Source: Rikenellaceae bacterium
Lineage (GTDB): Bacteria; Bacteroidota; Bacteroidia; Bacteroidales; Rikenellaceae
NCBI GenBank assembly: GCA_031551595.1
Contig: JAVBNK010000001.1
Coordinates: 1 to 42,429, forward strand
Reading direction: 5' to 3'
Length of the DNA stretch: 42,429 bases
The notes below the pieces were generated by a model. It was not told the origin of the DNA. It saw only the letters and a list, made by a program, of their open reading frames with translations, and made no database searches. The position numbers and the translations under genes were made by a program. Of the stretch, positions 19,139 through 24,231 are shown one piece after another. Each line of letters starts with the position of its first letter. Within the stretch, counting starts at the first letter, position 1.

Positions 19139-19699
19139 ATGGAAAGAACAAGGAAAATCAGACGGCTTCTGCTGCTGTCGTCGCTCCTGCTGCTATCCCC
19201 GGGCGTATGCCTTAAGGCGCAGGTGCTGGGGGTGAAGACCAATGCCCTGGCGTGGGGGACCGCCTCGTTCAACGTGGGATTGGAATGGGGATTCGCCCGC
19301 CACTGGAGTTTCGACGTGGACGGGATCTACAATCCCTTCAGCTGGAACGACGGCAAAAAGACCCACATCTGGGGCTTCCAGCCCGAGGTGCGCTGGTGGC
19401 CAGCCCACCGTTTCGCAGGACATTTCCTGGGAGTGCACGGCCACTACGCGATGTACGACTGGGGGCTGCACAAGTACCGCTACAAAGGGCAACTCTGGGG
19501 TACGGGCGTATCCTACGGGTATGCCCTGATGCTCTCACGGAGCTGGAACGTCGAAGTCAACGCCGGTTTCGGCTATACGCGCCTGAACGACGACTACAAG
19601 TACGACCGGCGCGACGCCAGCATCACCTACCCTGCCGAAACCCGCGAACAGTGGGGGCTCTCGCGTGCAGGGATCAGTTTCACGTATTTCTTTAAATAA
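19139..19699 (+). CDS. DUF3575 domain-containing outer-membrane beta-barrel protein
   Basis: A signal peptide is followed by the family pattern GVKTNALAW...NVGLEWGFARHWSFDVDGIYNPFSW...W.FQPEVRWW....F.GHFLGVHGHY. The product ends FTYFFK. Confidence 0.9.
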   Translation: MERTRKIRRLLLLSSLLLLSPGVCLKAQVLGVKTNALAWGTASFNVGLEWGFARHWSFDVDGIYNPFSWNDGKKTHIWGFQPEVRWWPAHRFAGHFLGVHGHYAMYDWGLHKYRYKGQLWGTGVSYGYALMLSRSWNVEVNAGFGYTRLNDDYKYDRRDASITYPAETREQWGLSRAGISFTYFFK

Positions 19700-19707
19700 C
19701 CGGGACC

Positions 19708-21393
19708 ATGAGAAAAAATCTACTACTGATCGCCTCTTTGTGTTGCGGACTGCTGGCCAGCTCTTGCGTGAACCTGCAGAAAATCCGCCAGTACCCGCAG
19801 GTCGTGGTCGACGTGCCCGGCAAGTACCTGCGGGAAACCGACCGCCAGGTCGACGTGCGTTTCGACGCAGGCCTCGCGGAGCAGTATTCCTCTTGGAACA
19901 CCGGGATCATCCTGCAACCGCTCTTCATCGGCCCCGACTCGCAACAGCTCGTCATGCCCCCGATGATCGTCGAAGGGTGGCAGCACGGCATCTTCAATAA
20001 GCGCATGGCACGCTACGAGTCCAAATACGCCGACCGCATCGCCGACCGCCACAACTACCAACGCCACGGCACCCTCGCCGAGTACGCCCACAAGGTGCGC
20101 TACGAGGATTGGATGCGCGGCGCGGGCCTCTATGCCGACCTCTATGCCGACGCCTTCAAGGAGCGCGTCCACCTGGGACGCATTCCGATCACGTGCGGGC
20201 TGCTCGACTTCCGCCAGTTCATCCGCCTGACCCCCGACGAGGGCTACTACTACCGCCGCGGGGTGCCCGTGGCACGCATGGTACGCGGCGGCGAGGCCGT
20301 GCCCAAAGAATGGGGCAAGACATTCCGCTTCGACTCCCCCGAAATGATGGACCAGAACGGGGTATGGAACGAATTGGCAGGCTATGTAAACTCGCTGAAG
20401 CTCGATCCCGAAGTACAGGACTACGTGGTGCGCGTGACGGTGAGCAACTCGCCCGAAGGCAGCCTCGACTACAACCGCGAACTGGGCGTAAAACGCTTGG
20501 ACGCCATGAAACACAAGCTGGCGATGCACGGCATCCCGTTCGAGAAATGCCACTTCGTGACCATCGACGAGGGCTGGCAAGCGCTGTATGAACTGCTGCC
20601 GTCGCTCGGGCTGCGCAACGCCGACCAGATCGCCGCCATCATCCGCGACGAACCCGACGCAGACCGCCGCGAACGCATGATCCGCACGCGCTACGGGGCC
20701 GACTACCGCAAAATGGTACGCGAGGCCTATCCGAAGTTGCGCTACGGCGAAACTATCGTTACGGCACGCTACAAGGGCATTGAAGGAGAAATTTACCGCC
20801 ATGCGGACGCCGAATTCGGCCTCCCGGCCATGAACGGCGAGTTGATCTCGCTGCGGCAGCTGCCGGCCGGCAGCGCCGACGTGCCCTCGCTGGCCGCCGC
20901 AATGCTCGATGCGGTCAAGGCAGGCGACTACAAACGCGCCGAGCAGATCGCCGACCGCATCCCCAACGCCAAGGCCGACGCTACGGTACGCTACGACAAG
21001 GCCCTCGTATTCATTAAGGCCGGCCGCACGGCCGAAGCCAAGGCCTTGCTCAAGGGGCTTGGCGACATCCCGGAATCACGCTACAACCTGGGATTGCTGC
21101 AACTCCTGGACGGGGAATACGGGCAGGCGGCCGACAACATGGCCGGCTATATCGACATCAATGCCGCCGTGGCACAGCTCTACGCCGGACGCGACCAACA
21201 GGCGGCCGACATCCTGCTGCTCTCGGACGGCTGCCCTGAGCGGGATTACCTGCTGGCAGTGGCCTACGCACGCCTCGGGCGCACCGGGCAGGCCCGGCAA
21301 TACCTCGACCGGGCGCTGCAGGCTTCGCCCGCGCTCCGCGCCAAAGCCGCCTGTGAACCCGACCTGTGCAACCTCGATGCAGGCACACGATAA
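19708..21393 (+). CDS. lipoprotein: DUF3868-like N-terminus, OmpA-like segment, C-terminal TPR-like repeats
   Basis: It has the lipobox LLASS|C. The segment ILQPLFIGPDSQQLVMPPMIVEGWQHGIFNKR resembles the DUF3868 pattern, and VTVSNSPEGSLDYNRELGVKRLDAMKHKL resembles the Bacteroidetes OmpA-like SPEG..N..LS..RA motif. TPR-like helices lie at the C-terminus, and the gene starts 8 nt after the DUF3575 gene. Confidence 0.7.
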   Translation: MRKNLLLIASLCCGLLASSCVNLQKIRQYPQVVVDVPGKYLRETDRQVDVRFDAGLAEQYSSWNTGIILQPLFIGPDSQQLVMPPMIVEGWQHGIFNKRMARYESKYADRIADRHNYQRHGTLAEYAHKVRYEDWMRGAGLYADLYADAFKERVHLGRIPITCGLLDFRQFIRLTPDEGYYYRRGVPVARMVRGGEAVPKEWGKTFRFDSPEMMDQNGVWNELAGYVNSLKLDPEVQDYVVRVTVSNSPEGSLDYNRELGVKRLDAMKHKLAMHGIPFEKCHFVTIDEGWQALYELLPSLGLRNADQIAAIIRDEPDADRRERMIRTRYGADYRKMVREAYPKLRYGETIVTARYKGIEGEIYRHADAEFGLPAMNGELISLRQLPAGSADVPSLAAAMLDAVKAGDYKRAEQIADRIPNAKADATVRYDKALVFIKAGRTAEAKALLKGLGDIPESRYNLGLLQLLDGEYGQAADNMAGYIDINAAVAQLYAGRDQQAADILLLSDGCPERDYLLAVAYARLGRTGQARQYLDRALQASPALRAKAACEPDLCNLDAGTR

Positions 21394-24176: not shown

Positions 24177-24199
24177 TGTAACATCCTTCTGAAGAATTC

Positions 24200-24231
24200 C
24201 CCCGGCAGGCCTTCCCTGCCGGGGATTTTTT
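24200..24231 (+). terminator. strong rho-independent terminator after the MACPF gene
   Basis: CCCCGGCAGG-CCTTC-CCTGCCGGGG followed by ATTTTTT. Confidence 0.85.

Follow-up and report, generated by a model that had tools for sequence, protein, structure and literature searches.

The operon described here lies in a 42,429-nucleotide (nt) stretch of DNA from a Rikenellaceae bacterium (contig JAVBNK010000001.1 of assembly GCA_031551595.1, positions 1 to 42,429), referred to below as the window. At 19139-24231, three open reading frames (ORFs) of 186, 561, and 917 amino acids (aa) follow each other on the plus strand, separated by gaps of only 8 and 29 nt. Gene 1 (19139-19699) encodes a DUF3575 barrel, gene 2 (19708-21393) a lipoprotein with DUF3868-like, OmpA-like, and TPR parts, and gene 3 (21423-24176; 917 aa counted from its ATG) a lipoprotein in which tandem BACON repeats are followed by a MACPF domain. 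The BACON-MACPF gene is the only one between the gene 1-gene 2 pair and an intrinsic terminator (24200-24232, plus strand), which consists of a 10-pair stem (9 G-C) with a loop of 5 at 24200-24224, followed by ATTTTTTG. The operon limits given in the original prediction, three tightly spaced genes ending at a strong terminator, were thus borne out.

Gene 1 matched the Pfam model DUF3575 (PF12099) over positions 4-177 of 177, with an E-value of 2.3e-51 and 174 bits against a cut-off of 21.1. This agrees with its earlier designation as a DUF3575 barrel. Weak Pfam matches to OMP_b-brl and Autotransporter were also obtained. The protein carries a signal peptidase I type signal (...LKA-QVLGV), with cleavage before Gln as in the orthologues, and it is 38-62% identical to the leading gene at each of the related loci, the highest conservation among the three genes. 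A sequence search returned no solved structural relative of gene 1, and an NCBIfam search gave nothing further for genes 1 and 2. Judged from its sequence, the gene 1 product is a predicted small outer-membrane beta-barrel, FimX-like, of ~160 mature residues.

Gene 2 starts with a signal peptide ending in the lipobox ASS-C20, and no acidic residues follow the Cys. The whole protein had no Pfam DUF3868 match at E 0.1, and its N-terminal 173 aa alone stayed below threshold (E 0.18; 12.4 bits against a cut-off of 27). There was no significant Pfam OmpA match either; only sub-threshold TPR and Pal_lipo (E 0.018) matches were found. An exhaustive HMMER search yielded 17 representative relatives at E<1e-30 and 81 at E<1e-10, and among 40 aligned relatives Pfam detected DUF3868 in 16 and OmpA in 12. 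The profile of the close clade was compared by hhalign with that of a DUF3868-positive clade, in which DUF3868 is matched in 13 of 14 members and OmpA in 12 of 14, and which includes a Parabacteroides distasonis DUF3868 protein annotated by the Prokaryotic Genome Annotation Pipeline. The two profiles aligned with a probability of 100% (E 2.3e-47) over 324 collinear columns, corresponding to gene 2 aa 33-374. A tblastn search with gene 2 also hit an annotated DUF3868 protein of P. distasonis (E 3e-8).

The AlphaFold2 (AF2) model of gene 2 (predicted local distance difference test, pLDDT, 90.4) comprises an N-terminal, DUF3868-like beta-sandwich (aa ~30-165), an OmpA-like peptidoglycan-binding fold (aa ~190-360), and a C-terminal TPR domain (aa ~390-550). 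Foldseek matched the OmpA-like fold to OprF 5u1h, OmpA 4rha, RmpM 1r1m, and Pal 5n2c, with target-normalised template modelling scores of 0.64-0.71, and the TPR domain to MamA and PilF. Six residues of the OmpA-like segment (S248, E250, G251, N256, L259, and R263) are invariant in the family. Profile alignment and model identify gene 2 as a diverged member of the DUF3868/OmpA-like/TPR lipoproteins, PgmA-like. The domain composition proposed earlier therefore stood at the level of hhalign and AF2, but not as a direct significant Pfam match to DUF3868 or OmpA. The protein most probably faces the periplasm and binds peptidoglycan, the latter as predicted from the modelled fold. All but its most distant homologues begin with C-V-[NS]-[LI], lacking acidic residues, and the acidic motif described below for gene 3 is absent from all of them.

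Direct reading of the sequence places the signal peptide of gene 3, its lipobox FMAG-C28, and the acidic motif N29-E-D-D32 (NEDD) at 21423-21518 (plus strand). The motif, in the form C-[NKQT]-[ED]-x-[DE] and mostly followed by x-[PS]-F, is kept in 10/10 poly-BACON cargo proteins, so this part of the original prediction extends to every cargo of this type. An acidic motif after the Cys acts as a surface-export signal (PMC12853789 and references therein). It had also been claimed that the other lipoproteins in the region lack such residues. This applies to nearly all of them, but the CsgG-like lipoprotein encoded downstream reads C-A-Q-E, with one Glu at +4.

Behind the export signal, five tandem BACON Ig-like repeats form a stalk (aa 50-479; 21570-22859). 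Pfam reported five BACON stretches (E 4.8e-32), and a local hidden Markov model (HMM) placed the repeats at aa 50-116, 137-208, 231-300, 321-388, and 409-479, with a period of ~90 aa. The repeats are 23-37% identical pairwise, and a recent repeat expansion in gene 3 was rejected because of this low identity. No fimbrillin, Mfa1, or Mfa2 family match to the protein was found in Pfam.

The MACPF domain (aa ~492-767; 22896-23723) was detected by Pfam (PF01823; E 3.8e-13; 50.5 bits against a cut-off of 21.5), by phmmer against the PDB, and by AF2 with Foldseek. It contains the signature YGTHVITGLILGG, and hydrophobic and polar residues alternate in the two regions of the membrane-inserting hairpins. 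With this, the lipobox, the NEDD motif, the five BACON repeats, and the MACPF signature had all been read correctly at the outset. In the phmmer search, the head was closest to GNIP1Aa (6fbm; 5e-25 over ~280 residues), followed by Plu-MACPF (2qp2; 9e-13) and Mpf2Ba1 (2e-12); BT_3439, the one solved Bacteroides MACPF protein, was found by profile only (7e-10). The AF2 model of aa 468-917 (pLDDT 83) gave 6fbm, 2qp2, 8b6v, perforin, and 3kk7 as best Foldseek matches, with E 8e-22 for GNIP1Aa, and the ranking by fold was the same as that by sequence. The NCBIfam model BSAP5a_fam scored 50.2 bits, below its cut-off of 500, and no other BSAP model matched.

The C-terminal domain (aa ~776-917, which with the stop codon occupies 23748-24176) comprises ~140 aa and is all-beta with ~10 strands in the AF2 model. 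Searches with this domain alone returned nothing from Pfam or the PDB sequences, even at E 10. Its conservation extends to the last residue in the cargo proteins of three related loci (L001, L002, and L024) and in a stand-alone relative (P0081). By analogy with BSAP-1 (PMC12853789), this tail is the presumed receptor-binding head. There is no basis for calling the protein glycan-targeted, as had been proposed: no demonstrated sugar binding is reported for the BoGH5A BACON domain (PMC12853789), and the tail matches nothing.

To describe the distribution of the operon, loci were collected from contigs encoding gene 2 relatives, by a metagenome scan, and by a local HMM scan of the fetched loci. 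Conserved-stretch scans with seven gene 2 sequences returned only two distant loci from the genome collection, which matched the TPR tail, and three loci from the metagenome collection. The synteny expected from the original prediction was found: the three-gene unit is present in ten further distinct loci (L001, L002, L015/16, L017, L019, L014/18, L020/21, L022, L023, and L024). The complete order DUF3575, gene 2 homologue, BACON-MACPF lipoprotein is seen in L001, L002, L015/16, L017, and L024, with 12, 6, 5, 8, and 7 BACON repeats in the cargo, respectively. In L014, the 25-aa stub downstream is the same as the N-terminus of the BACON-MACPF protein P0086, and in L019, L022, and L023 the poly-BACON cargo is cut by the contig end. 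The cargo of L020/21 is a protein of 1386 aa with 14 BACON repeats and no MACPF domain. Thus, a poly-BACON cargo follows the pair in 10/10 related loci with a readable downstream region.

Gaps between the genes range from -4 to 73 nt across these loci, the G+C content of which is 0.40-0.60; one of them comes from a Marinifilaceae metagenome-assembled genome. The families DUF3575 and BACON, together with relatives in metagenome-assembled genomes of Bacteroidales and Marinifilaceae, point to Bacteroidota/Bacteroidales as the origin of the window. Full-length identity to the window proteins is 38-62% for gene 1, 24-44% for gene 2, and 30-42% for gene 3, pointing to joint divergence. Since the flanking genes differ in every locus, the three genes travel as a unit. 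Two loci have additional features. In L023, poly-BACON lipoproteins flank the pair on both sides, with 9 repeats upstream (4486-7359) and at least 8 in the downstream, contig-end-cut gene (9760-12150). In L020, genes with WG_beta_rep and weak protein-kinase matches lie downstream of the BACON-only cargo (14041-17489).

A fourth gene often adjoins the unit. In the window, it is a divergently transcribed one-component regulator on the minus strand (16889-18637; 595-aa ORF), whose start is likely the ATG at 18637. It has a signal/lipobox-like N-terminus, an extracytoplasmic TPR region, one hydrophobic peak corresponding to a transmembrane helix at aa 412-432, and a C-terminal AraC-type domain (Pfam HTH_18, E 3e-16; TPR_12 and TPR_1). 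TPR-transmembrane-HTH_18 regulators adjoin the module in the window, L002, L015/16, and L017, and a shorter HTH_18 protein is found in L020; L024 has the module without an adjoining regulator. The mutual identity of the TPR-AraC regulators of this clade is 26-28%.

A search with full-length gene 3 gave only BACON-driven matches, and it was repeated with the MACPF-tail half. Relatives were then found at 42-53% identity, and those with readable contigs (L003-L011) are stand-alone genes. In place of a long stalk, the closest of them (42-47% identity) carry a Pro/Glu tether or 0 to ~2 BACON repeats, and neither DUF3575 nor gene 2 is encoded next to them. Because these short-tether relatives lack the pair, the pair tracks the long stalk and not the toxin head. 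Within this clade, it is strictly associated with poly-BACON lipoproteins of 5-14 repeats, with or without a terminal MACPF domain. At L009 (6677-7777, minus strand) and L010/L011 (6700-7803, minus strand), a divergent membrane-anchored HTH_18 (AraC-type) regulator adjoins the stand-alone MACPF gene, so a MACPF-AraC pairing also exists without the DUF3575/gene 2 pair. Among the close relatives of the MACPF head, P0084 is the most widespread (L003-L008, about 7866-10016, on STEW19-1 ENA metagenome contigs). As called, it starts within a BACON domain, immediately preceded by stop codons, and has no signal peptide; it may be a decayed or mis-assembled gene.

Outside this clade, the same pair is found in front of pilus genes. 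In L025, which encodes a more distant gene 2 relative, DUF3575 and DUF3868 genes are followed by two Mfa2-like genes. The annotated loci of P. distasonis (L026) and Bacteroides finegoldii (L030) have the order DUF3575, DUF3868, Mfa1 major subunit, FimB/Mfa2, in the latter case with a divergent AraC regulator. These three loci support the statement of the original prediction that such pairs head type V pilus operons. On plasmid pMMCAT, DUF3575 is followed by DUF5119 and a fimbrillin. There are also pairs without same-strand cargo (L012, L028, and L032), and DUF3575 is paired with unrelated proteins in L029 and in L012 (gene 1415-4549). A site-specific integrase gene is located just upstream of the DUF3575-DUF3868-pilus operons in L026 (5632-6591), L030 (3344-4564), and L031 (3404-4357), which hints at phase variation by promoter inversion in those gut Bacteroidales pilus operons; no integrase was seen near the module in the window.

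One pilus locus with which the operon can be compared is the fim cluster of Porphyromonas gingivalis, fimX-pgmA-fimA-E, in which PgmA is a 60-kDa outer-membrane protein (PMC3436787) that was "suggested to be the usher" (PMC7482747). FimX and PgmA are dispensable for FimA polymerisation, and their inactivation was reported to lower fimA transcription (PMC3436787). Like type V pilus operons, the window operon has the same first two genes in the same order and with tight spacing (gaps of 8-40 nt), a gene 2 that is homologous over the 324 aligned columns, an upstream regulator, and a lipoprotein cargo bound for the cell surface. In contrast to them, no fimbrillin gene (FimA, Mfa1, Mfa2, or FimB) follows the pair, and the cargo is a single tandem-BACON polypeptide with a MACPF head instead of a pilin polymer. 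In addition, gene 2 of the window does not reach the Pfam thresholds for DUF3868 and OmpA, and its TPR tail is longer.

The gene 3 product also resembles the BSAPs (BSAP-1 to -4 and BT_3439, and in particular their BACON subclass), which are lipoproteins exposed at the cell surface that require an export signal and combine a MACPF domain with a tail for receptor binding (PMC12853789). As in that subclass, gene 3 encodes a lipoprotein whose Cys is followed by an acidic export signal, its MACPF signature is intact, BACON lies N-terminal to MACPF, and a distinct C-terminal domain is a candidate for receptor binding. An N-terminal BACON domain was reported in 16% of the Bacteroidota MACPF representatives, its role being stated as unknown (PMC12853789). 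However, the published representative N-terminal domain has ~115 aa, as opposed to 5 BACON repeats in the window and 5-12 in the orthologues, and the window tail matches no Pfam family or PDB sequence searched. Further, gene 3 is co-operonic with a FimX/PgmA-like pair and has no recognisable receptor homologue next to it. In BSAP-1 producers, a resistant receptor homologue is encoded right beside the toxin gene, and the receptor of BSAP-1, a FadL-type barrel of 14 strands, has an extracellular domain (PMC12853789).

The nearest solved MACPF domains belong to GNIP1Aa of Chromobacterium piscinae (6fbm), Plu-MACPF of Photorhabdus (2qp2), and Mpf2Ba1 (8b6u/8b6v), with which the window tail has no sequence match. 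These are soluble secreted proteins of Proteobacteria with beta-tripod or beta-prism tails, and they have neither a lipid anchor nor a BACON stalk. Functional analogies to the pair are offered by Neisseria Slam, in which a periplasmic TPR domain fused to a 14-stranded DUF560 barrel displays a neighbouring lipoprotein, and by PorP-PorE of the type IX secretion system, in which a barrel is combined with a TPR/OmpA_C lipoprotein tethered to peptidoglycan. Both share with the window operon an outer-membrane barrel, a periplasmic TPR part, and a cargo-adjacent position; an OmpA-like peptidoglycan-binding domain is found in PorE only. Unlike in those systems, the window barrel is much smaller, and barrel and TPR are on separate polypeptides. 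No Pfam match to DUF560/Slam or PorP/SprF was found in the window operon.

The claim that the architecture is undescribed held in part. The BACON-MACPF protein architecture is already catalogued (PMC12853789), but in the searchable literature, where DUF3575 occurs in four papers and DUF3868 in two, no link of either family to MACPF or BACON was found. The catalogue paper itself does not mention DUF3575, and a term search of it turned up no genomic-context analysis. The combination of these known parts in one operon thus appears undescribed.

We propose, with moderate confidence, that the operon and its regulator constitute a conserved four-gene surface module of uncultured Bacteroidota, in which the pair is a peptidoglycan-tethered platform for a surface fibre, here a MACPF-tipped stalk. 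The TPR-AraC regulator would sense an envelope or external cue via its extracytoplasmic TPR domain and switch the operon on. After lipidation, the cargo would be transported to the outer membrane, where the CNEDD export signal would direct its flipping to the surface. Barrel and gene 2 lipoprotein would together form the platform in the outer membrane and help to export, position, or anchor long lipid-anchored fibres. At ordinary loci this fibre would be a pilin polymer, and in the window a single-polypeptide stalk of five BACON domains, roughly 20 nm long; orthologue stalks would extend to ~50 nm. The MACPF and C-terminal domains, held at the stalk tip, would bind a receptor on another cell and oligomerise to form a pore, resulting in contact-range killing or lysis.

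Two observations on the genes guide this proposal. The pair accompanies pilins, a headless BACON stalk, and BACON-MACPF proteins and is absent from the short-tether relatives of the head, which argues that its role concerns the long lipid-anchored fibre, most likely through anchoring, export, or regulation, and not toxin immunity. Stalks vary from 5 to 14 repeats, the pair is found only with long stalks, and one stalk is headless, which suggests that BACON serves as a spacer or fibre and that delivery is stalk-mounted and contact-range. A platform is favoured because barrel and peptidoglycan-binding TPR lipoprotein follow the logic of a split OmpA. Our confidence is only moderate because the P. 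gingivalis pair is not strictly required for pilus assembly. A wider version of the proposal, in which DUF3575/DUF3868-like pairs are a dedicated, cargo-general machine that exports and roots long lipid-anchored surface fibres and the cargo was swapped from pilins to perforin-tipped poly-BACON stalks, seems to us unlikely.

Several points speak against the platform. Every step after the anatomy is something we infer. The fimA gene alone restored fimbriae in a P. gingivalis mutant lacking the whole fim cluster (PMC3436787), so pilus assembly in that species does not depend on FimX and PgmA. An obligatory role in export or as an usher becomes less likely, although paralogous pairs could stand in for them. 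The equation of FimX with DUF3575 and of PgmA with DUF3868 derives from the adjacency of locus tags and accessions. A barrel of ~160 mature residues looks too small for a translocation channel, and the pairs without same-strand cargo indicate that the pair can function alone. Finally, the census amounts to ~11 loci of the clade, several of them from the same two sequencing runs.

Some of these points also feed other explanations. The main alternative is that barrel and TPR/OmpA-like lipoprotein handle no cargo and instead relay a surface or envelope signal to the TPR-AraC regulator, thereby controlling expression of the cargo gene. The lowered fimA transcription and the dispensability of FimX and PgmA for FimA polymerisation (PMC3436787) would fit such a role, as would the TPR domains that gene 2 and the regulator both expose to the periplasm, and a regulator adjoins most loci: TPR-AraC in the window, L002, L015, and L017, AraC in L030, a response regulator in L032, and LuxR in L033. 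The transcriptional effects could, however, be polar. Regulator families differ between loci, and within the clade identity is as low as 26-28%, whereas the pair is well conserved; L024 manages without an adjoining regulator, and no known signalling motif is present. We therefore regard signalling as quite unlikely. The cargo-less pairs could also mean that the pair is a general tether between outer membrane and peptidoglycan and that the poly-BACON gene merely shares its promoter, with the unrelated DUF3575 partners (L012 and L029) pointing in the same direction. This reading is the most improbable one that we considered: poly-BACON cargo is present in 10/10 readable loci with gaps of <75 nt, even where gene 2 identity falls to 24% and over a G+C range of 40-60%, and the three genes move as a unit between differing neighbours.

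In the original prediction, the DUF3575 barrel had been considered as a resistance allele. The corresponding explanation is that the barrel, with or without gene 2, is the producer's toxin-resistant version of the receptor, as in BSAP-1, the toxin gene of which is adjoined by a resistant barrel receptor homologue (PMC12853789). An outer-membrane barrel in the same operon as a MACPF protein invites this comparison, but the same pair precedes the 14-repeat BACON protein without MACPF in L020 and Mfa-type pilus genes in L025, L026, and L030, and the nearest stand-alone MACPF relatives have no DUF3575 neighbour. Moreover, gene 1 shows the highest conservation in the operon and encodes a minimal barrel, in contrast to the 14-stranded FadL-type receptor of BSAP-1. 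Receptor replacement is thus very unlikely. A different question is which membrane the head attacks, and here the answer is compatible with the platform model in either case. Targets could be eukaryotic (protists, fungi, or insect or other host cells), making the module a lytic, feeding, or virulence device and not a bacteriocin of the BSAP type. The head is nearest to the insecticidal proteins GNIP1Aa and Mpf2Ba1 and to Photorhabdus Plu-MACPF, with BT_3439 reached by profile only and BSAP5a at 50 bits against a cut-off of 500, and a tail conserved across hosts of 40-60% G+C is more in keeping with a widespread receptor than with one specific to a strain. On the other hand, the PDB contains very few bacterial MACPF structures, so that proximity to one of them says little; a lipid anchor combined with an export signal is typical of BSAPs; and every Bacteroidota MACPF protein with demonstrated activity kills bacteria (PMC12853789; PMC13245386). 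The data fit a bacterial or a eukaryotic target cell; we consider the eukaryotic one possible but rather unlikely.

If the wider, cargo-general reading is correct, the module would represent a new type of contact-range, stalk-mounted pore-forming weapon, and the pair, unexplained since the description of the fim cluster, would receive its first functional assignment. The occurrence of the same pair with a wholly different cargo provides a comparative handle on FimX and PgmA, the role of which must suit both pilins and single-chain Ig-repeat stalks. The stalks may be useful as long rigid scaffolds for surface display, and the tail may offer a new MACPF receptor-binding domain.

The putative control region between regulator and gene 1 (18638-19138, plus strand) was analysed by motif search and RNA folding. 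A Bacteroidota-type -7-like box, TATTTTTG, is located at 19015-19022 (plus strand), 124 nt 5' of gene 1. A perfect-looking 13-bp leader hairpin at 19072-19103 (plus strand) folds with -30.5 kcal/mol (z -2.56). The sequence of neither element is conserved in the other module loci, and the motif search revealed no common 9-mer upstream of gene 1 across them. A sigma-70 promoter scan of the window is not meaningful for Bacteroidota.

The G+C content of the module (0.58-0.64) is the same as that of the window, and a recent horizontal transfer of the module was rejected on this ground. At the right end of the contig (40001-42429), G+C drops to 0.42-0.49, compared with 0.60 overall. The contig starts (2-349, plus strand) with the C-terminal TPR part of a second gene of the gene 2 family (local HMM, E 6.6e-18); the genome therefore encodes at least two gene 2-type lipoproteins. 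This partial gene is followed by a small lipoprotein-like ORF (350-550) and tRNA-Asn (1419-1494, minus strand), with no BACON or pilus gene; the tRNA was the only hit of the Rfam and tRNA scans of the window. Right after the terminator of the operon (24343-26665, plus strand), four lipoprotein genes encode a CsgG-like protein that also matches LpoB, a small lipoprotein, a DUF4810 protein, and a GNA1162-like protein. This cluster is probably a separate envelope module unrelated to the operon.

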